A stretch of 64,000 nucleotides of DNA from an uncultured bacterium (GCA_964387845.1 CAYLXA010000002.1:1-64000); one strand, 5' to 3'. Positions 5,093 to 24,718 are shown, counted from the first letter of the stretch. Numbers and translations are program-made. The notes: generated by a model not told the origin, from the letters alone.

Positions 5093-5314
5093 ATGCAGCA
5101 GACAATTATTTTAATCGGAATTATGGTGATCGCTGTGTTGGGTCCGGCCATCGTTATTGCAGTTGTTGGATTTGCGACCATTAAAGCGCTTGGCAGGAAC
5201 CCATCAGCTGCACCGAAGATATTTTTGGGAGTTATTTTAATGCTGGTTTTTGCCGAAGCCACATCAATCATTGCGCTTTTGGTCGTGTTTCAATTGTTTA
5301 GCGGCGGCCAATAG
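5093..5314 (+). CDS. atpE: F-type ATPase c subunit (proteolipid)
   Basis: 73-aa two-helix hairpin. Polar loop ALGRNP. Conserved carboxylate in the second helix (FAEATSI). Confidence 0.75.
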   Translation: MQQTIILIGIMVIAVLGPAIVIAVVGFATIKALGRNPSAAPKIFLGVILMLVFAEATSIIALLVVFQLFSGGQ

Positions 5315-6075: not shown

Positions 6076-6975
6076 ATGGGTAAGGTAGCTCAGATCAAGG
6101 GCGATTTGGATGACGTCGAGGCGCTTCTTGAAATTATTACCATTTTAAAAGACGTTTCCACAAACCGGTTCTTTGCTTTTGCCCAGCAGAAAGACGATTT
6201 GAGCAAATTTCTGGAAATCTTTCTTATTTTCTTTGACATGGTTGCCGGCATTGAAACAACATGCCCGTTGGTACGGAATGAAAATCCGGCAACCGATATC
6301 GTGCTCATCACATCGGAGTCCAGTTTCATGTCACAAATGAATACCAGGGCCTGTAGTGCGGCGCTTGTAGAATTTCAAAAAAATCCAAGCGCAAGAATTG
6401 TTTGTGTGGGGCGCCGGGGTATCGACCGCTGCAAGCAGCTTGGAATGAAGGTGGATAAGTCTTATGAGAACGTGGATTTGGTCGGCCGTTATGAAACTTC
6501 GCTGATGATCCGGGATTATCTCATTGACCGCATCATGACCGGTACGACAGGAAAAGTGATGTGTATTTATATTTGGCCGAAAAGTTTCAGCGTTTTGAAA
6601 CCGCGCGTTGTGCGCTTGCTGCCCGCCACCGAGCTATTGAGCGATCAGGAAGAACAGGCGGCTGGAGAAGGGGAGCAAAAAGATGATAAACCAGTTCAGC
6701 AGGTGAGGGATGTGATTCAGGAGTCGGGAATTGACGGGATCATGAAAGTACTTGCCGACATCTGGGTTTCTTCGCGTCTTTTTGAAATTCTTTCGGATAC
6801 AAAATTGGCTGAAGCAGCTGCGCAATCGCAGCAGTTAGAATCGGCCATGGAAGGTCTTTCAAAAGAAAAGTCAGGATTGATGCTTGGTTTTAAAAAAGCG
6901 GTGCGCGGCGATTTGAATGCTGCGATGCGCGAAGTGTTTACGTCACAAAAAGCCATCAAATCAAGACGGGGATAA
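6076..6975 (+). CDS. atpG: F-type ATPase gamma subunit
   Basis: The C-terminal helix motif AEAAAQSQQLESAMEGLSKEKSGLMLGFKKAVRGDLNAAMREVFTSQ matches the gamma C-terminus. The central ITSE..FMSQMN region is also gamma-like. Confidence 0.7.
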   Translation: MGKVAQIKGDLDDVEALLEIITILKDVSTNRFFAFAQQKDDLSKFLEIFLIFFDMVAGIETTCPLVRNENPATDIVLITSESSFMSQMNTRACSAALVEFQKNPSARIVCVGRRGIDRCKQLGMKVDKSYENVDLVGRYETSLMIRDYLIDRIMTGTTGKVMCIYIWPKSFSVLKPRVVRLLPATELLSDQEEQAAGEGEQKDDKPVQQVRDVIQESGIDGIMKVLADIWVSSRLFEILSDTKLAEAAAQSQQLESAMEGLSKEKSGLMLGFKKAVRGDLNAAMREVFTSQKAIKSRRG

Positions 6976-6979
6976 ATAA

Positions 6980-8386
<1,407 letters not shown>

Positions 8387-8392: not shown

Positions 8393-10579
8393 GTGGTGAT
8401 AATTAGTCCTGCAGAAAAAACATCATTTGATGCGCTGGTTAGTTCGGGCATCCTTCAGAAAGACGATCTAGAGAAGGTTGTCAAAGCCGCTGCGCACGAA
8501 AAGCTCTCGCTGTCTGAATTTGTCGTACGCTCCGGCCGGATCAAAGATGCCGAGCTTCCGAATGTTTATGCAAAGTACTTCAAGGTTCCTGCCATTCAAC
8601 TTAAATCGATCGAAACTGACCGTGCCGTTATCGAAAAGGTTCCCGTTAAGTTCTCCAATTATTATAAATTTTTCCCCGTTAAACTGCACAATCACAGGCT
8701 GACAATCGCCATTTCACAACCGATGGATGTCGGTACGCTGGATGAAATCCGGTTAGGGCTTGGGTTTGACATTGATTTCGTTTTCGCTTCAGGGCGTGAT
8801 ATCGAAGAAATGAGCAAGCGTTATTATGGATTAGGTGCCGAGACAGTTGACCGCATCATGATGCAAAAAAGCGGACAAGATTTACCCGCTTCCGCGCACA
8901 TGAGTGCCGCCGTTCAGGTTGAGGACATAGAAAAACTTGCAGAGACCGCATCAGTTGTGCAGCTCGTGAATCAAATTTTCCTGGATGCTTACCGAAAAGG
9001 CGCCAGCGATATTCATATCGAGCCTTACCGAGGCCGTGTTCGGCTGCGGTATAGGATTGACGGTGTTCTGCAGGAAGCGCGTGTGCCGCCCGATTTGATG
9101 CGGTTTTTTATGCCGATTTTGTCACGCATTAAAATCATGGCAAATCTTAATATCGTGGAACGCCGGTTGCCGCAAGATGGCAAGGCGCGCGTCAAGACAC
9201 AGGATCAAACCTTAGATTTACGGATTTCATCGATCCCCACACCGCTTGGCGAGAGCATGGTGGTCCGGATCCTTCCCAGTAAAATGATTCTGAGCTTGGA
9301 AGAACTTGGTTTTGAGGCGGATCATTTGAAGATATTTAAGGACCTGCTCAAGCGGCCCCATGGCGTGATTTTCCTGACAGGCCCGACCGGCAGCGGTAAA
9401 AGCACGACCTTATACTCTGGGTTCAGCTCAATGGATACGATGGTGAAGAAAGTTGTAACCATCGAAGACCCGATTGAGTATGAAATCGACGGAATCACAC
9501 AAGTGCAGGTTATGCCCGAGATCGGCCTCACATTTGCACGCGGTCTCCGGAGCATGCTTCGGCACGATCCGGACGTGATGATGGTCGGCGAAGTCCGGGA
9601 TTTGGAAACGGCCGATATTGCCATTCGGGCGGCTTTGACGGGGCATTTGATTTTATCGACATTGCACACCAACGACGCCGCGAGCGGAATTACGCGCCTG
9701 ATCGACATCGGAGCGCAGCCTTATCTGGTCGCTTCGAGCGTTATCGCTTTTATCGCGCAGCGGCTGGTTAGGGTGATTTGCCCCAACTGCAAGCAAGAGA
9801 ACAAATCTCTTTCGGAAGCAACCCTCAATCTCATCAAATCCGACCTAAATTTGACAGCGGACGATTCAGTTAAAACTTATATCGGAACCGGTTGTGATGA
9901 GTGTAATCAAACAGGATTTCGCGGGCGTGTCGCTGTGCACGAGATCATTCTGATCAATGAAGAAATCCGAAAATTGATCTACACAAAAGCATCGTCAGAG
10001 GAAATTAAGTTGAGGGCTCGCAGCCTCGGCATGAGGACGCTCAGGCAGGATGGATGGAAAAAGGTCTTGAGAGGCATTACGACTGCCAACGAAGTGATGG
10101 AAATTACGCCGGCCGATGAGATTGAAAACAGGGAATTGAAAGAGATGTTTCAAGAGGTTACGATTGCCCAGTCTCCGATCAAGCAGACCGATGAGTTTGT
10201 GGAGCGCAGGCGCTATCCCCGAGCGGTTGTTAAGTTTCCTTTGTCATTCCGCGTCATTGGCCAAGGATCTCCCGCTTCCAAAAGTGCATCGAGCACCGAA
10301 GAATGGGTGGAAGCCGAATCGGAGGATCTGAGTGCCAGCGGACTCATTTTTTCTAGCGCTCAAATCGCACAAATCGGCCAATTGCTCGAGTTTAAGCTAG
10401 AACTCCCCGATCGAAGTCAACCGGTCCAATGCATCGGACGCGTGCTCAGGGTTGAAGAGAGCGATCAAAATATATCCCGAAAGACAGTGGTGTCCTACCG
10501 TGTTTCAGTAACTTTTTTGTCGATTAATAGTGTCGACCGATCAAGAATTGAAGCTTTTTGCCAGGGCCGCGTGTCATGA
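8393..10579 (+). CDS. gspE: GspE/PilB-family secretion/pilus ATPase with a C-terminal PilZ domain
   Basis: Walker A GPTGSGKST. His box. Tetracysteine CPNC..CDEC. C-terminal extension with RRRYPR and DLSASG PilZ motifs. Confidence 0.85.
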   Translation: MVIISPAEKTSFDALVSSGILQKDDLEKVVKAAAHEKLSLSEFVVRSGRIKDAELPNVYAKYFKVPAIQLKSIETDRAVIEKVPVKFSNYYKFFPVKLHNHRLTIAISQPMDVGTLDEIRLGLGFDIDFVFASGRDIEEMSKRYYGLGAETVDRIMMQKSGQDLPASAHMSAAVQVEDIEKLAETASVVQLVNQIFLDAYRKGASDIHIEPYRGRVRLRYRIDGVLQEARVPPDLMRFFMPILSRIKIMANLNIVERRLPQDGKARVKTQDQTLDLRISSIPTPLGESMVVRILPSKMILSLEELGFEADHLKIFKDLLKRPHGVIFLTGPTGSGKSTTLYSGFSSMDTMVKKVVTIEDPIEYEIDGITQVQVMPEIGLTFARGLRSMLRHDPDVMMVGEVRDLETADIAIRAALTGHLILSTLHTNDAASGITRLIDIGAQPYLVASSVIAFIAQRLVRVICPNCKQENKSLSEATLNLIKSDLNLTADDSVKTYIGTGCDECNQTGFRGRVAVHEIILINEEIRKLIYTKASSEEIKLRARSLGMRTLRQDGWKKVLRGITTANEVMEITPADEIENRELKEMFQEVTIAQSPIKQTDEFVERRRYPRAVVKFPLSFRVIGQGSPASKSASSTEEWVEAESEDLSASGLIFSSAQIAQIGQLLEFKLELPDRSQPVQCIGRVLRVEESDQNISRKTVVSYRVSVTFLSINSVDRSRIEAFCQGRVS

Positions 10580-11793
10580 AAAAATTTGTTTATCAAGCCA
10601 AGAAAAAACCCGGTGAATTTGTGAATGGATCATTGATGGCCGATTCGCAAGATGAAGCTATCGACAAGATAAGTGCGCAGGGCTTATTTCCAATTGAAGT
10701 CAAAGAAGAGGTGGCTCAAGAAGTTCCCAGAACAGCGGTGCCGCAAAACTTTTCAAAACGCATACCCTCACGAGACTTGATCATGTTTTACCGGCAAATC
10801 GCCAAAATGACGCAATCCGGCATTCCAATTTTAAGAGCTATTGGTTTTATTTACGACCAATCTACGAAATCGCCCCTGAGACCCGTTTTAGAAAATGTGC
10901 AGACCATGATCGGCCAGGGCGAGAACTTTTCGGGCGCTCTTAGCCGGTACCCGCGCGTATTTTCATCCTTTGATTTAGCTATGATCGCAGCCGGAGAGAG
11001 TGTTGGGAAACTGAATGAATCGCTTTTGCAGCTTGCAAAACACAGGGCCGACCAGCAGGCGCTTTTGTCGCGCGTCCGCGGTGCGTTGGCTTATCCGGCA
11101 TTTATTCTCGTGATGGGTGTTTTGACCGTAAGCTTCATGTTGACGCATGTGATTCCGCAATTTTCACGCTTTTTCGCCGATCTCGGCCAAAATTTACCCA
11201 TTCCGACACAAATTTTGATCGCAATTAGCCAGTGGCTTCAGGCAAACTGGGTTGGGATTGTTGCTATATTGGTTTTTCTATTTTTTTTATTACAGCGGAT
11301 TTTAAAATCTGAGAGCGAAAGGCGGATTTTTGATCGCCTGGTCCTTAAGGTTCCGCAAGTTGGGAATTTGATCTTAAAAGTGGAGATTGCACGATTTAGC
11401 CGATCTCTTGAAATTTTAATCAAGAATAAGATGCAGGCGCTTCAAGCGGTCTCAATCGTGATTCCGATTGTTCAAAATCGCTCCATCCGAGATGAGTTGG
11501 AAAAAAGTCGCCAGCAAATGGAGCAGGGCGGTTATTTGAGCGAAGGCCTAGGGCAATCTGAGGTTTTTCCGAAATTTGTCCATTATCTCATCAGAACGGG
11601 CGAAGAGTCGGGGCGTTTGGATGAAGCGCTTGCCGAAATTGCGGATTGGTACGAATCGGAAATTGATGAAACCGTCAAAGTGACAACCAGTTTAATGGAG
11701 CCCCTTGTTATTTTAGTCGTCGGGTTTATTCTAGGTCTGATCGTTATAGCGGTTTTGATGCCGGTATTTAGCATGAACGCCGCGATTCAATAG
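10576..11793 (+). CDS. gspF: GspF/PilC inner-membrane platform protein
   Basis: GspF-type duplicated cytoplasmic domains and three TM segments. ATG overlaps the gspE stop (ATGA). Confidence 0.85.
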   Translation: MKKFVYQAKKKPGEFVNGSLMADSQDEAIDKISAQGLFPIEVKEEVAQEVPRTAVPQNFSKRIPSRDLIMFYRQIAKMTQSGIPILRAIGFIYDQSTKSPLRPVLENVQTMIGQGENFSGALSRYPRVFSSFDLAMIAAGESVGKLNESLLQLAKHRADQQALLSRVRGALAYPAFILVMGVLTVSFMLTHVIPQFSRFFADLGQNLPIPTQILIAISQWLQANWVGIVAILVFLFFLLQRILKSESERRIFDRLVLKVPQVGNLILKVEIARFSRSLEILIKNKMQALQAVSIVIPIVQNRSIRDELEKSRQQMEQGGYLSEGLGQSEVFPKFVHYLIRTGEESGRLDEALAEIADWYESEIDETVKVTTSLMEPLVILVVGFILGLIVIAVLMPVFSMNAAIQ

Positions 11794-11810
11794 CTAACAG
11801 AGGAATTAAA

Positions 11811-12251
11811 ATGAAACATTATTTTCATCATCAAAAAATGTACCAGCGAGGGTTTTCACTTATCGAAATTCTGCTGGTTGTTGTTATCATCGGAACGCTT
11901 GCCGGCATGATGATTCCGCGGATTACGGGGCGTTCCGAACAGGCCCGCATGGCAGCTGCCAAAGCAGATGTTAACGTTAACATTCCAACGGCGCTAAAAC
12001 TTTACGAACTCGACAATGGGTTTTTTCCGACAACTGATCAGGGTTTGACCGCGCTGTTAAAAAGACCCGATACTCAACCGACACCACAAAACTGGAACGG
12101 GCCGTATCTAGAAAAAATGCCCATCGATCCTTGGGGCAGGCCGTATCATTACAGTTCGCCTGGGGTCAATCGGCCGCACGATTATGACTTATTTTCTTCC
12201 GGCAAAAACGCCGGAAAGGAGAAGGTGGATGATGATATCAAGAACTGGTAG
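11811..12251 (+). CDS. gspG: Major pseudopilin GspG
   Basis: Prepilin N-terminus QRGFSLIEILLVVVIIG. GspG hallmark DPWGRPYHY. Confidence 0.85.
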   Translation: MKHYFHHQKMYQRGFSLIEILLVVVIIGTLAGMMIPRITGRSEQARMAAAKADVNVNIPTALKLYELDNGFFPTTDQGLTALLKRPDTQPTPQNWNGPYLEKMPIDPWGRPYHYSSPGVNRPHDYDLFSSGKNAGKEKVDDDIKNW

Positions 12252-12660
12252 ACGGCGGGCTAGCGCACCTTGTTTAAAATCGCAAACCGGGGTAACTCTG
12301 GTTGAAACCTTGGCAGCCGTTGTCATTTTATCAATCGGGATTGTCGCGGTGTATCAACCGCTTCTACGGTCATTGACGGTGCTGCATGAAATGGATGCCC
12401 GGCTGGAAGCGGACCGGTTGGCATCAGATGAGCTTTGGTTGTTAAAAATGAACCAAACTCGTCTCCAGGCCCTCTCAAAGGCTTCCGAGCAAAGTCAGGC
12501 TGTTGGTGCCGAGCGTGCTTATGCGTACGCAATTGAATCAAAGCCCCTCACAGAAGATAAGGTTTTAAACATGGTTCGTTTAAGGATGGAGTGGAATATC
12601 TCAGGCCGTTTAAAAGGAATTACGCAAACCAGTTATGTTGAAATTCCAAACGCGAATTAA
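12229..12660 (+). CDS. Minor pseudopilin (GspH/I-like)
   Basis: Prepilin-type N-terminus GVTLVETLAAVVILSIG. About 143 aa. The ORF-track start at 12184 overlaps gspG, so the ATG at 12229 is preferred. Confidence 0.65.
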   Translation: MMISRTGRRRASAPCLKSQTGVTLVETLAAVVILSIGIVAVYQPLLRSLTVLHEMDARLEADRLASDELWLLKMNQTRLQALSKASEQSQAVGAERAYAYAIESKPLTEDKVLNMVRLRMEWNISGRLKGITQTSYVEIPNAN

Positions 12661-13258
12661 ACAAACCGCCGGTTTTACCCTAGTGGAAACCATGCTGGCG
12701 GTTCTTATTATTTCAATCGTGAGCGCAGCGCTCTATGGGATTTTTTCCAATGGTGTCCAGGTCTGGCATCGCGCTAGTACTCCGAAGCTAAACTACGAAA
12801 TCCATTTCTTTTTTGAGCAATTAGAAGCGGATCTCCGGAATCTTTTGCCGAACGATCAAACACCTTTCAAGGGACAAAACTATTCTTTTGAATTCTCCTC
12901 ACTGAGCCCGAGCGTAAAAATTGTTAATGCCGCAGAATCGCGCGGCGTGCCGGCCCGCCTTAAGTATGATTTTCACAGTTCAAAACACTCCGTCAGCCGA
13001 ATCGTGAGAGATTATTACAACATTCTGAATAAACAAACCAAGCCGTCGTCAGAGCGAAATTTGCTTCAGGGGATCAGCCGGTGTACGTTTCAATATTTTA
13101 AGAAAGTAAATGAATTACAGGCGCCTTCTTGGAATAATAGCTGGTCAGACCTCTGCGTGCCGAATGCGGTCAAAGCAAGTGTCGAATATATGGAAGCGGG
13201 GCGCCTGCGTGTATTGACCAAAGTAATTCCTATTCCGGCGGGCGGGTGTTTTGTATGA
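12635..13258 (+). CDS. Minor pseudopilin (GspJ-like)
   Basis: Prepilin-type N-terminus AGFTLVETMLAVLIISIV. 207 aa. Confidence 0.65.
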   Translation: MLKFQTRIKQTAGFTLVETMLAVLIISIVSAALYGIFSNGVQVWHRASTPKLNYEIHFFFEQLEADLRNLLPNDQTPFKGQNYSFEFSSLSPSVKIVNAAESRGVPARLKYDFHSSKHSVSRIVRDYYNILNKQTKPSSERNLLQGISRCTFQYFKKVNELQAPSWNNSWSDLCVPNAVKASVEYMEAGRLRVLTKVIPIPAGGCFV

Positions 13259-14760
13259 AACTCCCCGGAACGCCTGCAAGTGGTTTGGGGCTGAAAAAGG
13301 CATCTAAGTCCAGCGAGACCATTTTAATCGAGCTGAGCGACAGCCGTATCAAAATCGTATCTCTCAGCGAATCACAGGGCAATTTAACCGTAGAAAGCGT
13401 TGCGCAAAAATCGGTTGTCGGGCTGTCAGACCAAGATGTTGCGGCATTTATCGCGCAATATTACAAGAAGCAAAATATTAAATCGAAGCAACTGGTTTGC
13501 GCGATACCTTCCGGTTATTTGATTTCCAAAAATGTTGATATGCCTTCCAGTGATCCGGAGGAAATAAAAAAAATAATTGATTTGCAGGCGGGGCGTTATA
13601 CGCCGTATTCGCGCGAGGAAATCGTCATTGATTATCTCTCAAGCAGCAAGCCCGGTCAGCACTACACCAATGTTTTATTAATTATTGTCCATCGTAAAAA
13701 TATTGATCGGCTACTCAAAATCAGCGAACTTGCCGGTCTTGAAGTATCCAGGATTGTCTGCGCATCAGAAGCAATGGCGCTCATTTGCGACCAAGTCCGT
13801 CAGCGCATCCTGCAGAAGAACTCAGCCGTCACAGGGATCCATGTTGCTGAGGAACAGATCGATTTAATATTTTCTGACCAGGGCCAACTTGTTTTTGCGA
13901 GAAGTATTCCGGTCGGATTTCGTCACTTTTCAGCCGGAAAGGAATCGGCAGATGCCGATTTTGCAAAGGAGCTCGACCAATCTTTTTCGGCTTATCAAAG
14001 CCAGGGCATCGGCCAGCCCGTTGAATTGGTTGCTTTTTCTGGCCTTGCCAAACAGTTGGCATCGCTGGAGGGTACGATCAAAAGCTCCGTTCCTTATGCG
14101 TCTGCCAGTTCTCTTGTGTTTGAAATGATACCGGAGGAAAAAGAGTTTCACTTATCAGATGAAGCTTTGGCAGCTTGCAAAAATGATCCGGAGGTATCAT
14201 TTTTTTCGGTTATTGCTTCGGTTTGGATGCTTAAATCACTTAAGCTTGACTTCGTCCCGAAGGAAGTAAAGCTAAGAAAAAAAGTTCAAGAGGGGAGCCG
14301 AGATATTATTGCTTTAGGCGTTCTTTTGATGACCCTTATTTTGTTGATCTGTGTTTTCCTGGGCGTGCAGATTTATCTGAAAAAGGACATCATCAAGCGG
14401 CTTGAATCTATTAATGTGAAGACGTCTGACCAAGCCAAGACCCTCGAGCAGGCTTCCACCAAGAGCCGTGTTCTGCGTAATTTGCTGGATAGCCGCGGAA
14501 AGGGCCTTTATGTTTTTGAGAAAATATCAACGGTGATCGGTGAGGATATTTATTTGGCTAGTTTTAGTTTTGATAAAGACGACATTATTAAATTGGCGGG
14601 CACCGCAGATTCCATGTCGCGTGTTTTTGCATTTGTTACCGAATTGGAAGAATCTCAATATTTTAAGGATGTTAAAACCAATTCAACAAAATCCAGGCGC
14701 CAAGGCCAGCGAGAAGTGGCTGATTTTGAAATCGAGTGTACGTTTTCCGAAGGTATTTAA
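13255..14760 (+). CDS. PilM-PilN fusion / GspL-like assembly protein (cytoplasmic actin-like domain, one TM, periplasmic domain)
   Basis: N-terminal PilM-like region, then TM IIALGVLLMTLILLICVFLGV, then a PilN-like C-terminal domain. ATGA overlap with the upstream gene. Confidence 0.6.
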   Translation: MKLPGTPASGLGLKKASKSSETILIELSDSRIKIVSLSESQGNLTVESVAQKSVVGLSDQDVAAFIAQYYKKQNIKSKQLVCAIPSGYLISKNVDMPSSDPEEIKKIIDLQAGRYTPYSREEIVIDYLSSSKPGQHYTNVLLIIVHRKNIDRLLKISELAGLEVSRIVCASEAMALICDQVRQRILQKNSAVTGIHVAEEQIDLIFSDQGQLVFARSIPVGFRHFSAGKESADADFAKELDQSFSAYQSQGIGQPVELVAFSGLAKQLASLEGTIKSSVPYASASSLVFEMIPEEKEFHLSDEALAACKNDPEVSFFSVIASVWMLKSLKLDFVPKEVKLRKKVQEGSRDIIALGVLLMTLILLICVFLGVQIYLKKDIIKRLESINVKTSDQAKTLEQASTKSRVLRNLLDSRGKGLYVFEKISTVIGEDIYLASFSFDKDDIIKLAGTADSMSRVFAFVTELEESQYFKDVKTNSTKSRRQGQREVADFEIECTFSEGI

Positions 14761-14775
14761 CAAAAAGAAAAACAT

Positions 14776-15411
14776 ATGATTGATGCATTCTATGCAAAGT
14801 TAAAAGGAAGGGAACGAGTACTTTTCGTGGCGGCGGTAAGCTGTGTTGTTATGGTTTTGATGGACCGGCTTGTCATTGGCCCCATTTTGTCACAGATGAA
14901 GCTGATGGATGCCGAGATTTCCGCAAAAACACAGACAGTCCGCCGGAATATGCGAATCCTTTCATTTCGCGATAGTATTTTAAATGATTATTCGCGTTAC
15001 AGCGCCTACTTTGACTCGGTAAATCGAAAACAGGAAGAGATTATTTCCAGACTTCTCAAGGAAATCGAATCAATCGCTGCTCAGAAATCGATCACAATTG
15101 TTAATATTAAGCCCGGTGATGTGCAGGAAAATCCGGTCTTTCATGAGTATAAAACCACCTTGGAATTTTCAGGTAAGCTGTTGGACATACTCGGTTTTAT
15201 GAGCTTGTTGGAAGAATCTGACTATTTGTTCAGAATCACTGAATTTTCGATGACGCCGAAATCAAAGAATTCAGATGTTATGAAGTGCGTCCTCAATGTG
15301 ACCAGAATATTGATGACAGCCGAAAATGTGCCTTCACCGGCGGTAAGCGTGGCGCAGCCGTCTAATGCAGCCGCGCCCGGCGCTTTACCGTTTGGAGGGG
15401 AACCGGCGTGA
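14776..15411 (+). CDS. PilO/GspM-like bitopic assembly protein
   Basis: Single N-terminal TM, a coiled coil and a ferredoxin-like C-terminal region. Position follows the GspL-like gene. Confidence 0.5.
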   Translation: MIDAFYAKLKGRERVLFVAAVSCVVMVLMDRLVIGPILSQMKLMDAEISAKTQTVRRNMRILSFRDSILNDYSRYSAYFDSVNRKQEEIISRLLKEIESIAAQKSITIVNIKPGDVQENPVFHEYKTTLEFSGKLLDILGFMSLLEESDYLFRITEFSMTPKSKNSDVMKCVLNVTRILMTAENVPSPAVSVAQPSNAAAPGALPFGGEPA

Positions 15412-16115
15412 AAATCTTATCTTTTTTTTGCGCTTGGTTGCTTGCCTGGAATGCGGTCTCATGGTGTGAAACCGGCCAAAAACAGAGGGCGCAAGAATTG
15501 TACGGAGAGAGCATCGAACTTCTAAAACAGGAAAAGGTAAGTTTGGCGATTGATTTGTTGTTGGAATCGGTTGAGTTAGATCCTGGCTTTGCACCGTCCT
15601 GGAATGCGCTGGGTTTGGCGTATATGGGCAAGGACGGCTATGCGGCAGATGCCATCGACGCATTTACGCAGTCGCTTGAGCTGAGCCCTGCTCAACCGGA
15701 TGTCTATGCGAACTTAGGCATTGTGCATAGCAGCGACACAAAGGATTATGCTTTGGCAGAAGAATATTTGACTAAAGCGCTTGCGATGGATCCGGAAAAC
15801 CTGCGCGCCAACTTCGGAATGGGCTGGGTCAATTTATGGCACAAACAGGACGGTACAGGGGCGGTTAAATCCTTCAAAAAAGTGCTTAAAAAAGAACCTG
15901 AAAACTTTATGGCGCATTATGGCGTCGGTATGGCTTATTTGGCACAGGACAATCGGGCAATGGCGCTCAAATCAATTTCAATGCTGCGGAAGTTGCGCAA
16001 GAATGATTTGGCAATTCAGCTTGAGTCTCTGATTCAACCTCGCGAGGAAGCCGCAGGGCCTGACGCTTCATTTGGAGCTGATCAATCAAAGGATTTTAAC
16101 TTAGGAAGCTTTTGA
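15408..16115 (+). CDS. TPR-repeat exported protein (PilF/PilW-like pilus-biogenesis TPR protein)
   Basis: Signal peptide plus repeated W-LG-Y-A-P TPR-like units. GTG start overlaps the upstream stop. Confidence 0.6.
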   Translation: MKILSFFCAWLLAWNAVSWCETGQKQRAQELYGESIELLKQEKVSLAIDLLLESVELDPGFAPSWNALGLAYMGKDGYAADAIDAFTQSLELSPAQPDVYANLGIVHSSDTKDYALAEEYLTKALAMDPENLRANFGMGWVNLWHKQDGTGAVKSFKKVLKKEPENFMAHYGVGMAYLAQDNRAMALKSISMLRKLRKNDLAIQLESLIQPREEAAGPDASFGADQSKDFNLGSF

Positions 16116-16120
16116 TCCTG

Positions 16121-16468
16121 TTATTTTGAATCAATCGCTTTCTGGCACTGATACTCCAAAATACCCACGGTTTGCGCAAGCGCTTCGATGCGGGAATTTT
16201 GCTCATTGATATAAATGGTCAGGAATAGGGTTTGCAGCAACAGGAAAGCCAGCAAGCAAAAAAAAGCAAAGTTGCTTGGTAGTGTAAAACCCATCCAGCT
16301 TGAAATTTGAAAAAGCGCCTGGTCAACAATGGAGAAAAAGAGGGCAATAACTGACGTTCCAAGCCACAACACAGAAAATTTAAATGTCATTTTTTGCCGC
16401 CGGATTAAATTAATGACGACCAGCATAATCACTACGGAAACAAAAATTGCCACGGTTCGTGCTTGCAT
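16121..16468 (-). CDS. DUF2304-like small membrane protein (glycosyltransferase-associated)
   Basis: 115 aa with three TM helices. Sits immediately beside a Dpm1-like GT2, as is usual for this family. Confidence 0.5.
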   Translation of the reverse strand: MQARTVAIFVSVVIMLVVINLIRRQKMTFKFSVLWLGTSVIALFFSIVDQALFQISSWMGFTLPSNFAFFCLLAFLLLQTLFLTIYINEQNSRIEALAQTVGILEYQCQKAIDSK

Positions 16469-16480
16469 GAGATATGCTCC

Positions 16481-17188
16481 TTATTTTTTTTCTTTTAAAA
16501 GATCCACCAAAATTGCAAATGTTACTTTTATCATGTAATACAGAGTGGCAAAATAGCGGATTGAAGATACACCGCTTTTTCGTTCGCGCATGTTAACAGG
16601 GACTTCCCCGATACGCGCAGAAAGCCGGTTGGCAATCTTGATTGCTTCCGGCTCAGGGAAATCAATCGGGTAGTAATCTGCAAAATAGGGAATTAGTTTT
16701 TTGCCCGTTGCGCGGAAACCGGATGTGGGGTCGGTTAAATGAATTCCGGTTAAAATACTCAAAAGGTTGGCAAAAAAACGGATCCCAATCCGGCGCGTGA
16801 ACGTAGATTTAAAGTGGGATGACGTGGTTAAGAACCGGCTCCCAATGCAAAGATCCAGCTTGTCGGACAGGACCGGTTCTAGGATTGTGTGCAGAAATGC
16901 CGGATCATGCTGAGCATCGCCGTCAAGCTGAATAACCGCGTCGTATTTTTCTTTTAAGGCAACTTTGTACCCGGTCTGGACGGCGCCGCCAATACCCAGA
17001 TTAAAAGGGTGGGTAACGATTGATGCGCCTCCAGCAACCGCTTCATCGCGAGTTGTGTCTTTAGAGCCGTCATTAATAACAAGCGGCGTATAGGTTGGAT
17101 ATTCACGCTTGATGGTTTGCACTAACTCACGGATTGAGCCGCTTTCGTTATAGGCGGGTATAACAATTAAAACTTTTGGTAGCGACAT
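16481..17188 (-). CDS. GT2 polyprenyl-phosphate sugar synthase (Dpm1-like)
   Basis: VLIVIPAYNE. INDGSKD. LDGDAQHD, a GT-A DxD region. Confidence 0.8.
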   Translation of the reverse strand: MSLPKVLIVIPAYNESGSIRELVQTIKREYPTYTPLVINDGSKDTTRDEAVAGGASIVTHPFNLGIGGAVQTGYKVALKEKYDAVIQLDGDAQHDPAFLHTILEPVLSDKLDLCIGSRFLTTSSHFKSTFTRRIGIRFFANLLSILTGIHLTDPTSGFRATGKKLIPYFADYYPIDFPEPEAIKIANRLSARIGEVPVNMRERKSGVSSIRYFATLYYMIKVTFAILVDLLKEKK

Positions 17189-17253
17189 GCGATTATCTTA
17201 TCGTTGCGCAAGGCCAAGCTCAAGTCAATTCTATCAACGGAAAATTGAACCAC

Positions 17254-19800
17254 ATGCTAGCTGACAAACGATCGATAGGATATTTCATATCCTTTATTTT
17301 GGTTGCCGTATTTTCTCTTCATTTACGGACTGCATGGATCCAAAATCCCGGTCAGGAATCCCGGACAAATGCCAAACAAATGGCAAGCATGCTCGTTCTG
17401 GCGTCTGTACGTGAACAAGTTAAGGCTTCTGTGATTTCCGAAAATCCGGGCCGTGACGCACGGGAAGTTGACCGAATAGTATCGGAGCAGGTTGAAAAAG
17501 TCATTCAGTCAGATAACCGTCAGTTCGAAGAAGCCATTCGAAATGCCGAGACTGAAATTGCGGCGCGGATACAGCAAACCCAAAAAAACCGCCAGCAGCC
17601 CTTTCTCTTGGAGGCAGATCCGTATTATTACTATTACGCTGTCCAGAAAATCGAGGAGGAGGGCTCGCTATTTTTAAACCGAAAAGACGGCCTTTTTTTT
17701 AACCCGCTGAGACTTGCGCCTTCCGGTTCGTGGGATTGGCTGACGCTTCATCCTTATGTTGGATATTTTCTTCACCATTTTTTTAAAATATGGAAGCCGG
17801 ATCAGGTCATGATGGAATCGCTCGGATGGGTCCCGATTTTGTTGTCCATGATCGTTGCGATATTATTTTTTCAGATTTGCCGAATCATGAATTTTGAAGC
17901 GCTCCCTGCATTGCTGGGCGGTTTTGTTTTAATGACGGCGCCCATTTTTATCCAGCGCAGCGCCTTTGGATGGTTTGATACGGATCCTTACAACTATTTA
18001 TTTCCGCTGGCCGTGCTGATGACGCTCATGCTTTGCATCCAAACTAGGTTTCGAGGCGGCTTTGCAGGAGCTCTTGGCGGTTTTTTGACGGGTTTATATG
18101 CATTATTCTGGGCGGGTTGGCCGTTTCTATTGGTTTTGGTTGTGATTGCTAGCGGTTCCATTGTTTTTTTGGAGTGTTGGAGAGTGAAGAAGTTAAATTG
18201 GGCCCCATGTTTTGAATATCTGATTGCGTACCTGTTTTCGTCCATTTTATTTTCATTTGTCTTTATTACGCCAAAGAGCACTATCGATGTTATCTACAAT
18301 GGATTGGTTTTTATTCCAAAATTCTCAGTCTCAACATTCGAAAGCTGGCCAAGCGCATTTCTTACCGTCGGTGAAGCAAAATCAATTTCATTGCAGAAGT
18401 TAATTTTTTTAACAGGGAATTATGTTATTTTTGGGATAGCACTGATAGGATTTATTGCCTCGGGTATTTATTGGTATAGACGGAAAAAAGACAACTCCAG
18501 ATTTTACGAATGGCTTGTAATCGCGTTATTTGCGCTTCCTTTATTTGTTTTATCCATTAAAACCGAGCGTTTTTCTGTCTTGTTTGCTCTCCCGCTTGCA
18601 CTGCTTGTTGCTTTTGGTGCTGAGTGGTTGATGCGCATATCAGCCGTGCTTTTTGGCCGCGCTAAGGATGAGAAGTCTAAAAACTTTGCACCCAAAGCCG
18701 CTGCCCTTGTACTCCTTCTTGCTGTCTTGCCGATGGGGTTTGTGCAAGCCAACATTGTCTCGCGGCAAATATCTCCCATTATGGATCTTGTTTGGTATCA
18801 AGCACTTACAGAAATTAGGGACCAAACACCAGAGAATGCAATTGTTCATAGTTGGTGGCCGCCCGGTTATTTTATTATTTCGGTCGCGCGCCGGAGGGCA
18901 TTGGTGGACGGCGGAACGCAGGAACGCCCGCAATCTTACTGGATCGCTAAGGCATTTTTGTCGTCTGATGAAAGCCAGTCGGCAGGTATTTTGCGCATGT
19001 TGTCCACAAGCGGTAATGAGGCAATGGATTTTTTGCAGGGTAAATCGATGAGCTTGTCAGACGCATCCAATCTAATTCTAGACATCGTCAAGCGCCCACG
19101 ATCGCAAGCATTCGATGTGCTGCCAAACCAATTTACAAAACAGGAAAAATTGAAGCTGCTTGACCTGACGCACGGCGAGAACCCTGCGCCGAGCTATGTA
19201 TTGTTGTATAAAGATCTGATTGATCAAAATTTGGCTGTGACGCTGATGTCCGAATGGGACTTCGAAAAGGCAAAAGCGCTGGAGACTGCAAAACATACCG
19301 GCAAAGAAAAAAAGACCGCGCAATCAAATGCCGAAAACTATATTCAAAACATGTTGCAAGTAACCGGCGGCGTTTTGAAATACTGGCCGCAATCTGAAAT
19401 GAGGCGGCAAGATGGAAAAGTTATCTATTTTCAGAACGGAGTCAGTATTGATCTTGAAAGCGGAGACGCAAAAATTCAATCGCCCGGTGCGGGGCCTAAC
19501 GGAAATTTATTGAGTTTGTTTTATCTTGATGAAGATGCGCTCATCGAGAAAGAAAGCAGCGAGCCCTCGGTTGACGCCTCCGTTTTACTGATCCGTCGAA
19601 ATGATGTGTATGCTTGTGTGGTGGCGGACCGAAAGCTGATTCGTTCCATGATGTTCCGGTGGTATTATTTAGACGGCAAAGGACTCTCGCTATTTAACCT
19701 ATTTACAAAGCAGGACAGTGAAGACGGTAGTAATCGCGTAAGTGTATTCCAGGTGAATTTTGAGTCTGTGCTCGCAGCTGAAACCGAGGTGAAAGCATGA
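17254..19800 (+). CDS. STT3/AglB/PglB-family oligosaccharyltransferase-like membrane protein (variant WWPPG motif)
   Basis: EL1 motif ADPYYYYYA. Later TDPYNY. TVGE (TIXE/SVSE-like) motif. SWWPPGYF after about 13 TM helices. Large C-terminal soluble domain. The ORF-track start at 17176 overlaps the GT2, so the ATG at 17254 is preferred. Confidence 0.65.
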   Translation: MLADKRSIGYFISFILVAVFSLHLRTAWIQNPGQESRTNAKQMASMLVLASVREQVKASVISENPGRDAREVDRIVSEQVEKVIQSDNRQFEEAIRNAETEIAARIQQTQKNRQQPFLLEADPYYYYYAVQKIEEEGSLFLNRKDGLFFNPLRLAPSGSWDWLTLHPYVGYFLHHFFKIWKPDQVMMESLGWVPILLSMIVAILFFQICRIMNFEALPALLGGFVLMTAPIFIQRSAFGWFDTDPYNYLFPLAVLMTLMLCIQTRFRGGFAGALGGFLTGLYALFWAGWPFLLVLVVIASGSIVFLECWRVKKLNWAPCFEYLIAYLFSSILFSFVFITPKSTIDVIYNGLVFIPKFSVSTFESWPSAFLTVGEAKSISLQKLIFLTGNYVIFGIALIGFIASGIYWYRRKKDNSRFYEWLVIALFALPLFVLSIKTERFSVLFALPLALLVAFGAEWLMRISAVLFGRAKDEKSKNFAPKAAALVLLLAVLPMGFVQANIVSRQISPIMDLVWYQALTEIRDQTPENAIVHSWWPPGYFIISVARRRALVDGGTQERPQSYWIAKAFLSSDESQSAGILRMLSTSGNEAMDFLQGKSMSLSDASNLILDIVKRPRSQAFDVLPNQFTKQEKLKLLDLTHGENPAPSYVLLYKDLIDQNLAVTLMSEWDFEKAKALETAKHTGKEKKTAQSNAENYIQNMLQVTGGVLKYWPQSEMRRQDGKVIYFQNGVSIDLESGDAKIQSPGAGPNGNLLSLFYLDEDALIEKESSEPSVDASVLLIRRNDVYACVVADRKLIRSMMFRWYYLDGKGLSLFNLFTKQDSEDGSNRVSVFQVNFESVLAAETEVKA

Positions 19801-20123
19801 GGCAAGCAGGTTTAAAAATATATACGGTTTTTTTGGCGGCTTTTCTCGTTGCACAATCGGGAATTTTGCTAGCCGAAGATCAAATGGCTCAAGATAGCGG
19901 TATCCGAAAATATGGGGTTGTTCACAATATTGCCGATGACCGCAAAGTTGAAAAGGTGGGCGGTATTTACGAGCCTGAGGGATTGGATAAGTATTTGCAA
20001 AGGCGGTTAGACGATGTGACTGCCCGCTTGGATGAATTTTCAGAAAAGTTAAACAAGATTGACCAAAAACTAGAATCCTTGAGTTTGCAGTCGCGAACAG
20101 CGTCCGACGGCGATCATTCATGA
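19797..20123 (+). CDS. Small exported coiled-coil protein
   Basis: Signal peptide followed by a coiled coil. Both start and stop are coupled to neighbours by overlap. Confidence 0.4.
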   Translation: MRQAGLKIYTVFLAAFLVAQSGILLAEDQMAQDSGIRKYGVVHNIADDRKVEKVGGIYEPEGLDKYLQRRLDDVTARLDEFSEKLNKIDQKLESLSLQSRTASDGDHS

Positions 20124-21139
20124 ATCAAGCCCAGTTAAGCGGAAAAAGGGGTAGTATTTTCGTGCTTTGCATGTGGGTTTTGCTTTTACTGAGCATTTTT
20201 TCAATCTCAGTCAGTTATTCAGTTCGCCAAAGGATTAAGGTCGTGGAGCGGCTTGAGACGCGTCAACACTTAAGACGCATTGCCGAGTCAGGTATTCAAA
20301 AGGCAATTTACATTCTGAAATTAGACGACAACGGATATGACGGTTGGTCCGAAGGGTGGTACCAAAATGAAGATGAATTTAAAGACATTGCAATCAACGG
20401 CGGCCGGTTTTCGATTTTTCAAAAATCGTCAGGAGTTATCCGCTACGGAATCACCGATGAGGAGTCGAAAATCAATATCAACTTGGTTGGTTCTCCCGTT
20501 GTTTTTCGGCGTTTGTTTCATGACGGCCTGGGATTAGACGAAACAATATCGAATCAGCTGGCAGAATCCATTCTAGACTGGCGGGACGAAGATGACAATC
20601 CGCGCGGAGCCGGAGCGGAAAGCGCATATTATCAAACGCTAAATCCGCCGTATCGCGCCATGAATTCGGATTTTGCCTCGCTTGACGAACTTCTCTTCAT
20701 TAAAGGGGTCGATCAAGGCGTTTTTAGTCTAATCGCTCCTTATTTGTCTGTTGACAGCACAGGAAAAATCAATTTGAATACGGCGAGCACACCAGTTTTG
20801 CGCGCGATGGGTTTTAGCGAGTCTTTGGCAGGGAAGCTGGTAATGTTCAGATCCGGGCTGGATCAGATTCTTGGAACCAAAGACGATAATGCATTGCAAG
20901 ATTCGCAAGACATTGTCGCAGCGATCGATCAATTCGCATCGTTGACCGGTGATGAGAAAAACAGTCTGAAAGATTTTATAGAATCCGGGCTTTTTACGAT
21001 CAAATCATCATATTTTCAGATTCAAGCGAACGCGCGGCTGGGCAACCGCGGGTCTGAGTTATCGGTAGTCAGCGTGGCTGAAAAGAATGATTCGACGATC
21101 AATATCATAGCCTGGCGTGAAAGTTTTTATGTTGAATAA
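20120..21139 (+). CDS. gspK: Minor pseudopilin GspK
   Basis: Hydrophobic N-terminus GSIFVLCMWVLLLLSIF. GspK-type helix-hairpin-helix motifs KININLV and KINLNTAS. Confidence 0.7.
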   Translation: MNQAQLSGKRGSIFVLCMWVLLLLSIFSISVSYSVRQRIKVVERLETRQHLRRIAESGIQKAIYILKLDDNGYDGWSEGWYQNEDEFKDIAINGGRFSIFQKSSGVIRYGITDEESKININLVGSPVVFRRLFHDGLGLDETISNQLAESILDWRDEDDNPRGAGAESAYYQTLNPPYRAMNSDFASLDELLFIKGVDQGVFSLIAPYLSVDSTGKINLNTASTPVLRAMGFSESLAGKLVMFRSGLDQILGTKDDNALQDSQDIVAAIDQFASLTGDEKNSLKDFIESGLFTIKSSYFQIQANARLGNRGSELSVVSVAEKNDSTINIIAWRESFYVE

Positions 21140-22304
21140 GATTAAAAAATTTTGTAGAACAAATCAACTAGCGATTGCGATACTTTCAGCACTGCTGGTC
21201 TTTTCATTTTTTGCTTCAACAGGAGCAGCCCAGCAAGAGATTGAAATTATCGAGGAGTTAAAGCTGTTTTCGCGCGCGCTCGGCGCAATTTTAGAGGGGT
21301 ATGTCGAGCCTCTGGATGGCCGCAAGATGTTTTATGAGGCTGTAAAGGGTATGATGGGCGCTCTAGACCCATACTCCCAGTTCTTTGATATGGAAAAATA
21401 TGAGCTGCTTAAAATTGAAATGAAGGGCGAATATTCAGGGATTGGCGCCAGGATCGGAATTGTTGATGACATTCCTGTTATCGAGGATATTCAAGCGTCC
21501 AGCGCAGCAGAAAAAGCAGGGCTGCAAATCAAAGATATGATTTTGCAGGCGAATCACGATTGGGTGGTTTCAAAAACCGCACCCCAAGTTTCAGCGCTCC
21601 TACGAGGCGAGGCGGATACGCCGCTTAATTTAACCATCTGGCGCGAATCGACCCAAAAACTTTTTGAAGTTGAAATGAAGCGGGAGAAAATTGAGCTCAA
21701 ATCAGTAAATGATATTCGGATTGTCGGAAAAGCAGTCGGTTATATTCGCATTGATGAGTTTTCGGAAAATACCATAGAGCAATTCGACGCTGCTATTAAA
21801 AACTTGAAAGATAGAGGGATGAAGGCCCTGATTATTGATTTGCGAGGCAATGATGGAGGCTTAATGCCAAAAGCCGTGGAGCTTGCCGAAAGATTTTTAC
21901 CGGAAGGGGCCAAAATCATATCTGTTAAAAGCCGCATCGAGGTCCAAGCTAAGGAATATTTATCATCGGGTTCTAAAACCGAATCTAATTATCCGCTTGT
22001 CGTTTTAGTTAACCAAGCTTCGGCAAGTGCATCCGAGATTTTTTCTGCAGCCATTCAAGATAACAAACGTGGTACTATTATAGGCATGAAAACATTTGGA
22101 AAAGCATCTGTGCAGTCAGTGGTTCCGCTGGATGAAACAACTGCGGTTAAATTGACGACAGCAAGATACGTCAGTCCAGGAGGGCGGGTGATCGATGGTG
22201 TTGGAATTACGCCTGACCAGATCGTGGAAAACGGACCTTCGAGCGAAGCCGGTTCTGATTCACAAGTCCGTACGGCATTAAATTTGTTGAAGGAATATCT
22301 TTAA
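21117..22304 (+). CDS. ctpA: C-terminal processing peptidase (S41, CtpA/Prc) with a PDZ domain
   Basis: PDZ region GIGARIGIVDD. S41 catalytic region LVNQASASASEIFSAAIQDNKRGTIIGMKTFGKASVQ. An alternative ATG at 21129 is possible. Confidence 0.8.
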   Translation: MKVFMLNKIKKFCRTNQLAIAILSALLVFSFFASTGAAQQEIEIIEELKLFSRALGAILEGYVEPLDGRKMFYEAVKGMMGALDPYSQFFDMEKYELLKIEMKGEYSGIGARIGIVDDIPVIEDIQASSAAEKAGLQIKDMILQANHDWVVSKTAPQVSALLRGEADTPLNLTIWRESTQKLFEVEMKREKIELKSVNDIRIVGKAVGYIRIDEFSENTIEQFDAAIKNLKDRGMKALIIDLRGNDGGLMPKAVELAERFLPEGAKIISVKSRIEVQAKEYLSSGSKTESNYPLVVLVNQASASASEIFSAAIQDNKRGTIIGMKTFGKASVQSVVPLDETTAVKLTTARYVSPGGRVIDGVGITPDQIVENGPSSEAGSDSQVRTALNLLKEYL

Positions 22305-22340: not shown

Positions 22341-22823
22341 ATGAAAACCAGTTGGATAGTGTTGTTTTGCTTGATCTCTATACTTGGAAATTCATGTTCG
22401 CAGGCACCCACATCTTACGAGCAATCAACCGCCGCTTCTGAGGAATCGCCATACGTAGACGCCGAAGTCTTAAATCAGGCCGTCAGCCAAGTACTGGCAT
22501 CTTCAAGCGCGTGGTCGTCGTTTGATTATAATGTCAAATACAAGGTTATCGAGACCATGGTTAATCTGTACAAAATCCGAGAGAACACAGCGATTTTAAA
22601 GTTGCCGTCATTTTATGTGCAGCGGGTCGATGACAGCTTTGCGGAAAATACAGAATTACAGCAATTACCGTTCCCTGAGTTTTTTAAAATTTTGGCGGTG
22701 ATGGAATATGATTTTTATAACGGCGAAAATAAAGACGACTTAGCCAGAGGGTTGTTGGGTGAGCGGATGTATGAATCCAACAAACAGAGGCTGCGCGACC
22801 AGGCAGAGGCAGCCGGTCAGTAA
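22341..22823 (+). CDS. Hypothetical small exported/lipoprotein
   Basis: N-terminal signal with Cys. Good RBS AAGGAGG. Confidence 0.4.
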   Translation: MKTSWIVLFCLISILGNSCSQAPTSYEQSTAASEESPYVDAEVLNQAVSQVLASSSAWSSFDYNVKYKVIETMVNLYKIRENTAILKLPSFYVQRVDDSFAENTELQQLPFPEFFKILAVMEYDFYNGENKDDLARGLLGERMYESNKQRLRDQAEAAGQ

Positions 22824-24293: not shown

Positions 24294-24718
24294 GCACTCT
24301 TTCGGATAAGGCCTTTTGAATGATTCCAGTCAATGACCCAGCTGTAGCGGATTTCTTCTAATCGCTTTTGTGCGATTTCAGCACTTGAAAAAAATGCAAG
24401 CCCAATCGATTCTCCCGGCTTTGGATTTAAAACCAGTGGGCATAGATAGCTTTGTGCATCATGGTAAAATTTTTCGATTTCCAGATCTTGGCCGAATGGC
24501 TTGTCGGATACAAACGAAATAGCGCCCGAGGATGGCAATAGGGTCTTTAACGGCTTCAACTCAGAACCCGGTACCGGGAAGCCAATGTCAGTTCCGTTTA
24601 AAAGGCTGTGCTTTAGAGCGGTTTCGATCGGCTCTTCTTTGGCAGCTCTGACAAGAAGCATGCTCGCCAAGATCGATATACAGAACAAACTATGCAATAT
24701 CAAACGAAATGATGTCAT
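24290..24718 (-). CDS. Hypothetical exported protein
   Basis: Signal peptide. Start-stop overlap with the flanking genes. Confidence 0.35.
   Translation of the reverse strand: MTSFRLILHSLFCISILASMLLVRAAKEEPIETALKHSLLNGTDIGFPVPGSELKPLKTLLPSSGAISFVSDKPFGQDLEIEKFYHDAQSYLCPLVLNPKPGESIGLAFFSSAEIAQKRLEEIRYSWVIDWNHSKGLIRKSA

Follow-up and report, generated by a model that had tools for sequence, protein, structure and literature searches.

The 64,000-nucleotide stretch considered here (GCA_964387845.1, CAYLXA010000002.1:1-64000; hereafter the window, meaning the whole stretch at its full length) derives from a member of the Omnitrophota, and the gene cluster under study, at positions 8393 to 21139, is the filament-assembly half of a same-strand locus of about 22 kb that is specific to this phylum. 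The locus opens with genes for a repeat protein and a coiled-coil membrane protein, passes through F-type ATPase genes, and runs into filament genes that combine parts of a type II secretion system (T2SS) with parts of a type IVa pilus (T4aP); in the window's clade these are followed by a glycosylation module, gspK, an S41 protease gene, and the gene for a small protein. The machine is a T2SS/T4aP mosaic and not an ordinary T2SS. The reading that we favor, and to which we give about an even chance, is a hybrid pseudopilus gated by cyclic di-GMP (c-di-GMP), encoded in a joint F-type ATPase/filament locus with a dedicated STT3-family glycosylation module, and with its prepilin peptidase and probably its secretin supplied in trans.

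The open reading frames (ORFs) were annotated with Pfam and NCBIfam profile scans, phmmer, Foldseek against the PDB, and AlphaFold2 (AF2) models. A preliminary description of the cluster, made from the sequence alone, had reported genes for E, F, and G, two minor pseudopilins, a GspL-like PilM-PilN fusion, a PilO/GspM-like protein, a TPR protein, and K, and the ORF map together with Pfam and NCBIfam places every gene that it named where it had been put. It recognized a T2SS-like type IV filament system, which agrees with a GspG above its equivalog cutoff and with the Pfam T2SSE, T2SSF, and T2SSG matches. The filament genes are as follows.

8393 to 10579, plus strand: assembly ATPase gene gspE, coding for MshEN, T2SSE (Pfam, E = 2e-127), and C-terminal PilZ domains
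10576 to 11793, plus strand: GspF/PilC platform protein (Pfam T2SSF)
11811 to 12251, plus strand: major pseudopilin GspG (Pfam T2SSG; leader G↓FSLIE; motif DPWGRPYHY)
12229 to 12660, plus strand: minor pseudopilin, GspI/PilV-like (N_methyl; leader G↓VTLVE; weak PilV and GspI matches)
12635 to 13258, plus strand: minor pseudopilin, GspJ-like (N_methyl; T2SSJ 26.4 bits against a cutoff of 28; leader G↓FTLVE)
13255 to 14760, plus strand: PilM-PilN fusion of 501 amino acids (aa) (Pfam PilM_2 and PilN)
14776 to 15411, plus strand: PilO/GspM-like bitopic protein, weakly matched (Pfam PilO 21.4 bits, cutoff 22)
15408 to 16115, plus strand: TPR protein with a signal peptide (Pfam TPR)
20120 to 21139, plus strand: GspK minor pseudopilin (T2SSK_1st 76 bits; PDB GspK matches)

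The cluster is far beyond chance because of the E-values and because more than 120 related loci keep its synteny. Homologs of the PilM-PilN fusion number 205, each about 500 aa long and with both domains, and every organism name that a source gives for them is Candidatus Omnitrophica or Omnitrophota. A scan of species-representative genomes yields 80 related loci, essentially all from Omnitrophota, and a metagenome scan seeded with the F-type ATPase gamma subunit adds 43 further loci. Searches for absent components covered the window and about 125 related loci, amounting to about 1.7 Mb and about 4,800 ORFs. The unit does not begin at 8393, as had been supposed: it extends upstream through the F-type ATPase genes to the window start, and downstream past gspK, where it takes in the genes for an S41 protease (21129-22304) and a 160-aa protein (22341-22823). 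The presence of F-type ATPase genes in the operon had been overlooked, although they are the hallmark of this locus type as published (PMC10066038).

The component proteins show the mosaic plainly, with GspG, GspK, and GspF of T2SS type, the ATPase ambiguous, and PilM-PilN of T4aP type. GspG, at 147.7 bits, exceeds the cutoff of 88.85 for the NCBIfam GspG equivalog, its top PDB matches are all T2SS GspG proteins, and it carries the motif DPWGRPYHY, as had been described. GspK reaches 124.9 bits against NCBIfam GspK (cutoff 130), and the platform protein scores 355 bits for GspF versus 276 for PilC, short of the GspF equivalog cutoff. The GspJ-like pseudopilin also has a weak NCBIfam GspJ match. 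Besides K, there are just three small prepilin genes in the cluster, and their canonical leaders, G↓F(T/S)L(I/V)E, are kept in G, I, and J, at the cleavage sites that the preliminary description had suggested checking. There is no PilT in the window, in which a single T2SSE-family ATPase is found, and neither the window nor the related loci yielded PilY1, PilP, or PilQ. On balance, we favor a T2SS-type pseudopilus over a retractile T4a pilus because of the pilin set and the lack of PilT.

The assembly ATPase matches NCBIfam PilB and GspE almost equally (566.9 versus 559.2 bits, both under cutoff), and its nearest solved structures are PilB proteins, at 459 bits versus 382 for GspE. Both RxxxR and DxSxxG, the motifs of its PilZ domain, occur in 44 of 46 orthologs. 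The MshEN motifs, inspected by eye, are without the key Arg and Gln residues, and PilZ is therefore the more likely c-di-GMP sensor, as judged from these motifs.

The PilM-PilN fusion has the topology of GspL in its AF2 model (predicted local distance difference test [pLDDT] 84.6), which comprises a full PilM actin-like cytoplasmic domain, a transmembrane (TM) segment with a long coiled-coil helix, and a periplasmic ferredoxin-like domain; the Pfam domains and the modeled topology bear out the earlier identification. Foldseek matches the model to PilM at E = 1e-17 to 4e-20 and to EpsL/GspL cytoplasmic domains at about 1e-10, and hhalign of the fusion profile against single sequences of E. coli GspL and HofM produced no significant match. 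A PilM-PilN complex is regarded in the literature as the GspL orthologue. The PilO/GspM-like gene directly follows the fusion in all loci, and the TPR protein has weak PilW and Tgl matches, far under cutoff.

No secretin or prepilin peptidase is encoded in the cluster, an absence that is real at the cluster level and holds across the phylum. The sizeable ORFs of the window have no Pfam match to Secretin or Peptidase_A24, and phmmer with E. coli GspD, HofQ, GspO, and GspC found nothing among window ORFs of at least 70 aa, in keeping with the report of no GspD, GspC, or PilD/GspO within 64 kb. Neither phmmer with GspO nor the A24 motif gave anything in the related loci, and secretin, GspC, and PilP are absent from the clusters of more than 120 loci. 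A conserved 288-aa ORF between gspF and gspG in one group of relatives was considered as a prepilin peptidase and rejected, since its Pfam match is Peptidase_MA_2. The sole GspD/HofQ match in the related loci is a 279-aa mini-secretin (L067, 19959-20798), lying 8 kb downstream of the cluster, and it too was rejected as a component, with housekeeping genes in between and no homolog in other loci. The mini-secretin family comprises 26 clusters of proteins of 250 to 282 aa with Secretin_N and Secretin domains, and such organism names as the sources supply are all Omnitrophota; one member on a metagenome contig (L088, 10001-10831) lies near a TonB-dependent outer-membrane receptor, with four small unannotated ORFs before it.

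The missing prepilin peptidase is almost certainly encoded elsewhere, because canonical prepilin leaders are kept in G, I, and J, and the secretin is probably supplied from elsewhere as well. There is precedent for such scatter in Legionella, where the T2SS is split over five loci with the secretin gene and pilD unlinked and pilD shared with pilus genes. Omnitrophota RcpA secretins are reported at other loci (PMC10066038), and gspD is reported in a different Omnitrophota secretion locus. A monoderm-like envelope, offered earlier as one explanation of the absence, is unlikely because secretins exist elsewhere in the phylum; the mini-secretin family and the TonB-dependent receptor point the same way.

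The order of genes falls into three architectures when ORFs are called in all loci and compared with the window proteins. Type A (32 loci, with PilM-PilN proteins 37 to 47% identical to the window's) has the window's order of TPR gene, DUF2304 gene and GT2 gene (both on the minus strand), STT3 gene, 108-aa gene, displaced gspK, S41 protease gene, and 160-aa gene. Among type A loci that reach the TPR gene, the GT2 and DUF2304 genes are present in 26 of 30 and the STT3 gene in 25 of 30, and most of those without one or the other are cut by contig ends. The exact window order, displaced gspK included, is common to about 30 Omnitrophota species. Type B (47 loci) runs gamma, beta, a small MshEN-only ORF, E, F, the 288-aa Peptidase_MA_2 protein, G, I, J, K, PilM-PilN, and O, followed by housekeeping genes, with no TPR or STT3 gene; examples are the Peptidase_MA_2 gene at 6527-7393 in L058 and the small MshEN-only ORF at 2084-2539 in L068. 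Type C (L072 and L084 to L086) has K in its canonical place, a TPR gene after O, and then a convergent STT3-like gene accompanied by a protease gene (S41 or trypsin-like), without the GT2 and DUF2304 genes. Thus gspK lies downstream of the glycosylation genes in the window's clade and between J and PilM-PilN in types B and C, and the TPR gene accompanies the STT3-like gene (types A and C), none having been detected in type B.

In some type B loci, further genes follow the cluster. The ORF after pilO in L067 (12039-12608) has EF-hand/dockerin-like calcium-binding motifs, and no family match was obtained for its equivalents in L058 and L042. A second filament set, with a pilin, three PilB/PilT-like ATPases, and PilC, lies directly downstream in L034, L043, and L062 (at about 13.4 to 20.9 kb), and in L065 a second E-F-J-K-PilM-PilN set follows directly (12057-19673).

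The glycosylation genes belong to a conserved architecture, and the STT3-like gene among them is part of the gene neighborhood of the system and not an accident of insertion. The preliminary description had the operon split by these genes, and a minus-strand DUF2304 and GT2 pair and a plus-strand STT3-like gene do lie inside it. The 'interruption' is, however, a conserved feature, given the gene order shared by about 30 species and the fact that, wherever examined, genes of this STT3-like subfamily adjoin the filament cluster, and do so in two independent arrangements. Base composition over these genes is uniform with their surroundings (GC 0.446 to 0.449 versus 0.449 to 0.481 in adjacent windows). 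In a rough neighbor-joining tree of PilM-PilN proteins, type A forms a clade and type C is basal to type B, and this placement points to an early STT3 association with a single loss. The genes of the module are as follows.

16121 to 16468, minus strand: DUF2304 small membrane protein (Pfam 75.7 bits)
16481 to 17188, minus strand: GT2 enzyme (Pfam Glycos_transf_2)
17254 to 19800, plus strand: STT3-family GT-C glycosyltransferase (Pfam STT3 83.7 bits, above cutoff, and STT3-PglB_core)
19797 to 20123, plus strand: secreted 108-aa protein (conserved core GGIYEPEGLDKY and a coiled coil)

The GT2 and STT3-like genes are divergent, with 65 nucleotides between their start codons. The best NCBIfam matches of the GT2 protein are PpgS (91 bits) and AglJ, below their cutoffs, and the protein is a putative polyprenyl-phosphate sugar synthase of the GacI/PpgS/AglJ type. 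GacJ and Rv3632, which are DUF2304 proteins, are activating partners of polyprenyl-phosphate HexNAc synthases, whose product goes to a GT-C enzyme acting outside the membrane; that a GT2 and DUF2304 pair feeds a GT-C enzyme is experimentally established for GacI/GacJ/GacL and for PpgS/Rv3632. The GT2, DUF2304, and STT3-like proteins would thus make up a three-component periplasmic glycosylation module. The 108-aa protein has orthologs in type A loci and no family match in Pfam or NCBIfam.

The STT3-like protein has the oligosaccharyltransferase (GT-C) fold: its AF2 model (pLDDT 87.9; predicted TM-score 0.84) has full-length PglB, AglB, or STT3 structures as its top 19 Foldseek matches in the PDB, followed by a PglB C-terminal domain and the C-mannosyltransferase DPY19. 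Aligned with human STT3A, its EADPY corresponds to EFDPY, FDTD (of FDTDPY) to YDNE, and SWWPPGY to SWWDYGY, and its TVGE motif corresponds to TIXE/SVSE; residues D122, D242, D244, and E374 are invariant across the family alignment. The Asp of WWDYG binds the +2 Ser/Thr of the sequon in STT3, AglB, and PglB. WWPPG stands in place of WWDYG in 25 of the 26 locus orthologs and in 64 of 70 close database homologs, 5 others of which have WWSPG, WWAPG, or WWTSG and 1 of which is a partial sequence without any WWxxG match, and WWD occurs in none of either set. A profile search of 1.84 billion representatives gives 1,222 matches at E <= 1e-30, and the 121 of the top 129 new representatives that bear the motif all lack WWD. 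Outside the family, the closest protein (E = 1e-24) carries WWDYG, and a word-indexed search found no close homolog there. It is therefore unlikely, from these motifs, that the acceptor rule of the STT3-like enzyme is N-X-S/T.

All GspG proteins of STT3-linked loci have a Pro-rich loop (KPTTxPxPxNWNGPY) that is 3 residues longer than in type B, where none of the proteins has it, and a single loss suffices to explain this pattern on the rough tree. The loop was considered as an STT3-specific acceptor and rejected: that of E. coli GspG is equally long, and the feature is therefore ancestral and not an adaptation.

The upstream part of the locus codes for an F-type ATPase of the 'symbiotic', non-respiratory kind, separated from gspE by only 6 nucleotides after the beta-subunit stop codon. 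Seymour et al. (2023, PMC10066038) described Omnitrophota "type-4a pilus" clusters beside a non-respiratory "symbiotic" F-type ATPase, with the two sets of genes no more than 10 kb apart in 57 of 66 contigs, and proposed a role in host-cell attachment or motility; their supplements make no mention of PilQ, PilD, or secretins. The genes that flank the cluster on either side are as follows.

1 to 2093, plus strand: repeat protein (ORF open from base 3, running off the window start)
2169 to 3593, plus strand: bitopic coiled-coil membrane protein of 474 aa (TM segments at both ends)
3590 to 5080, plus strand: F-type ATPase alpha subunit, 'symbiotic' non-respiratory type (Pfam ATP-synt_ab)
5093 to 5314, plus strand: F-type c subunit of 73 aa (Pfam ATP-synt_C 36.5 bits, cutoff 24)
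5332 to 6069, plus strand: b/delta fusion stator subunit (Pfam OSCP; ATP-synt_B below cutoff; N-terminal TM helix)
6076 to 6975, plus strand: F-type gamma subunit (Pfam ATP-synt 65.7 bits; family alignment)
6983 to 8386, plus strand: F-type beta subunit (Pfam; NCBIfam atpD 527.6 bits, cutoff 462.85)
21129 to 22304, plus strand: S41 C-terminal processing protease (PDZ domain; position after gspK conserved)
22341 to 22823, plus strand: 160-aa protein with a hydrophobic N terminus (conserved motif AVMEYDFYNG; no family match)

Alpha, beta, gamma, b, delta, and c are all present in the window. The alpha subunit scores 520.8 bits against NCBIfam atpA (cutoff 484.45), with a weaker MMOB1660 match; the NCBIfam subunit C matches of the c protein are under cutoff, as is the match of the b/delta fusion to the alternate F1F0 subunit B. 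Subunit a is absent between the repeat protein and gspE in the window and in L089, L093, L104, L105, and L122. Epsilon was not found in the window, and some relatives have it as an N-domain-only protein. The upstream order in the 43-locus set is a giant 13-aa-repeat protein, the bitopic coiled-coil protein, alpha, (epsilon), c, b/delta, gamma, beta, and gspE, and the F-type ATPase genes lie directly upstream of the filament genes in types A, B, and C alike.

The repeat protein is the conserved first gene product of the locus and its gene always precedes those for the F-type ATPase. It contains about 35 copies of the 13-aa unit LSKAGVNWDDLxx, with a tandem DNA period of 39 nucleotides, and then a coiled-coil tail; in L093, L104, L105, and L122 the ATPase genes are preceded by orthologs of at least 1,800 to 1,900 aa. 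Many metagenome contigs stop near this gene. In about 20 loci the 474-aa protein, which has a Lys-rich C-terminal tail and no family match in Pfam or NCBIfam, keeps its place after the repeat protein and before F-alpha. At the other end, the 160-aa protein, a possible lipoprotein, is the last conserved gene product of the type A locus.

From these gene identities, folds, motifs, and conserved synteny we infer how the machine might work. The PilB-like ATPase, a hexamer whose C-terminal PilZ domain would let c-di-GMP gate it, would drive the GspF platform to polymerize the GspG-type pseudopilin beneath a GspI-J-K tip, with the PilM-PilN fusion (as the GspL equivalent) and the PilO/GspM-like protein connecting the ATPase to the periplasmic side. 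Prepilins would be cleaved by a peptidase encoded elsewhere, and passage of the outer membrane, if there is any, would be through a secretin likewise encoded elsewhere. The GT2 and DUF2304 pair would make a polyprenyl-phosphate sugar, which the STT3-family GT-C enzyme, without the Asp that reads the +2 Ser/Thr, would move to a machine component or cargo in the periplasm.

Several observations weigh against this reading. No secretin, GspC/PilP, or prepilin peptidase is tied to the source genome, of which 64 kb were searched, and GspH is absent, with phmmer using E. coli GspH matching only G and I orthologs. The ATPase and the PilM/N/O platform are nearer to T4aP than to T2SS, and TXSScan-based work classes these loci as T4aP (PMC10066038). 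What links the STT3-like enzyme to the filament is conserved neighborhood, and the one candidate acceptor site, the GspG loop, is matched in length by that of E. coli; the GT2 and DUF2304 pair is not beside the STT3-like gene in type C loci and is also missing from L015. The minus-strand pair lies 5 nucleotides from the upstream genes, which blurs the transcript structure, and promoter and terminator scans were at the background of shuffled sequence.

In the published interpretation, the locus encodes a surface type IVa-like pilus that works with the adjacent F-type ATPase and serves to attach to host or prey cells or to move over them. That the ATPase is closest to solved PilB structures, that the platform is PilM/PilN/PilO-like in both sequence and fold, and that there is no GspC all accord with it, as does the description of these loci by Seymour et al. 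We consider it unlikely, if the strongest of the alternatives, as the major subunit is an unambiguous GspG, the cap is of GspK type, the GspF score of the platform protein exceeds that for PilC, and PilT, PilY1, PilP, and PilQ are missing from the window and the related loci. Quite unlikely is an ordinary T2SS with gspD, gspC, and gspO at other chromosomal sites and the glycosylation genes as unrelated envelope-glycan passengers. The dispersed T2SS of Legionella and the gspD homologs of Omnitrophota make the first part plausible, and glycosylation genes are abundant nearby, in a large downstream glycan-biosynthesis region with other GT-C enzymes. It does not account for the unusual mosaic, with PilM-PilN for GspL, MshEN and PilZ domains on a PilB-like ATPase, and GspH missing, nor for an F-type ATPase co-operon that is without T2SS precedent; the two independent arrangements of the STT3-like gene beside the cluster, and the lack of close homologs outside the family in the word-indexed search, also speak against passengers.

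A filament that is independent of any secretin and never crosses the outer membrane, doing a mechanical or envelope job in the periplasm and possibly coupled to the rotary ATPase, would fit the lack of secretin, GspC, and PilP from more than 120 loci and the placing of filament genes in one operon with an F-type ATPase that has c and no a. What is missing from a locus may still be present in the genome, however, and secretins do occur in the phylum, so we regard this as very unlikely. A still broader proposal joins the repeat protein, the subunit-a-less F-type ATPase, the hybrid filament, and the STT3-like module into one new machine confined to Omnitrophota, secretin-free, coupled to the rotary ATPase, and STT3-glycosylated from a polyprenyl-monophosphate sugar under an acceptor rule other than N-X-S/T; we hold it to be quite doubtful.

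T2SS pseudopilins on a T4aP-type platform with a GspL-like PilM-PilN fusion make the kind of intermediate that bears on the origin of T2SS from T4a pili. The STT3 subfamily is large, with about 1,200 representatives at E <= 1e-30. It retains N-oligosaccharyltransferase catalytic machinery, has lost the universally cited WWD sequon-reading motif, and is genomically tied to a filament machine, and its acceptor bears on how STT3 enzymes choose substrates. Omnitrophota are ultra-small bacteria that are thought to be predatory or symbiotic. The locus is the phylum-wide candidate for host contact, and its composition matters for models of their lifestyle.

Beyond the locus, the minus strand at 22845-26404 codes for two multi-TM proteins (482 and 554 aa) and one protein of 142 aa, none with a Pfam match; the 482-aa protein has a weak match to the LA_3751/LA_3752 putative glycosyltransferases and is a conserved convergent neighbor of type A loci. 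The glycan-biosynthesis region at 26413-57812 contains several GT2 genes and codes for a pyruvyl transferase, an FrhB-like protein, a DegT aminotransferase, a B12-radical SAM enzyme, two PMT_2 GT-C proteins, and a 1,074-aa spermidine-synthase/TPR protein.

The locus type itself is already published. In the Omnitrophota F-type ATPase/T4aP loci previously reported, alpha and beta lie within 10 kb of the filament genes, and here the two sets are 6 nucleotides apart; the present locus also has the GspG/GspK set, the PilM-PilN fusion, the PilZ-tagged ATPase, a c subunit without subunit a, and the embedded STT3-like, GT2, and DUF2304 genes. The pseudopilin identity, the fusion, the PilZ-tagged ATPase, c without a, and the embedded glycosylation genes were not found in the literature searched, and foremost among the features not found there is a WWD-less STT3 subfamily tied to filament genes; a full-text search found nothing joining STT3 with Omnitroph*.

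The cluster shares with the proteobacterial T2SS (Gsp/Pul/Eps/Xcp) GspE, F, and G, the minor pseudopilins I, J, and K, the GspG calcium-loop motif DPWG.PY, and the lack of a retraction ATPase. It differs in that the locus has no GspC, GspD, GspH, or GspO, that a fusion of PilN with a full-size PilM domain stands in for GspL, that the ATPase carries MshEN and PilZ domains, and that F-type ATPase and glycosylation genes share the operon. It resembles the T4aP machine (PilB/C/M/N/O/P/Q) in its PilB-like ATPase with an MshEN N-domain and in the folds and gene order of PilM, PilN, and the weakly matched PilO, but the major subunit is of GspG and not PilA type, PilM and PilN are fused, and PilT, PilP, PilQ, and PilY1 are missing. 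The Lsp T2SS of Legionella pneumophila likewise has a pseudopilin cluster without secretin or peptidase, the latter shared with another filament system, although all Lsp parts are known and canonical whereas the unlinked parts here are predicted.

The STT3-like protein has in common with STT3, AglB, and PglB the GT-C fold (TM-score up to 0.66 to 0.67, normalized to PglB), a periplasmic C-terminal domain, and the EL1 Asp, DxD, and TIXE-like Glu motifs, and is set apart by WWPPG (or WWxPG in most other members) in place of WWDYG throughout the family. Its genomic partner is a polyprenyl-monophosphate sugar synthase pair and not a lipid-linked oligosaccharide pathway. An analogy is offered by archaeal AglB, which glycosylates type IV pilins and archaellins, and by DPY19, which uses Dol-P-Man. 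As in GacI/GacJ/GacL and PpgS/Rv3632/Rv3779, a GT2 enzyme, a DUF2304 protein, and an integral-membrane GT-C enzyme are encoded together; in the Omnitrophota locus no flippase was identified, and the GT-C enzyme, whose acceptor is, from its gene context, likely to be a protein, belongs to the STT3 family.

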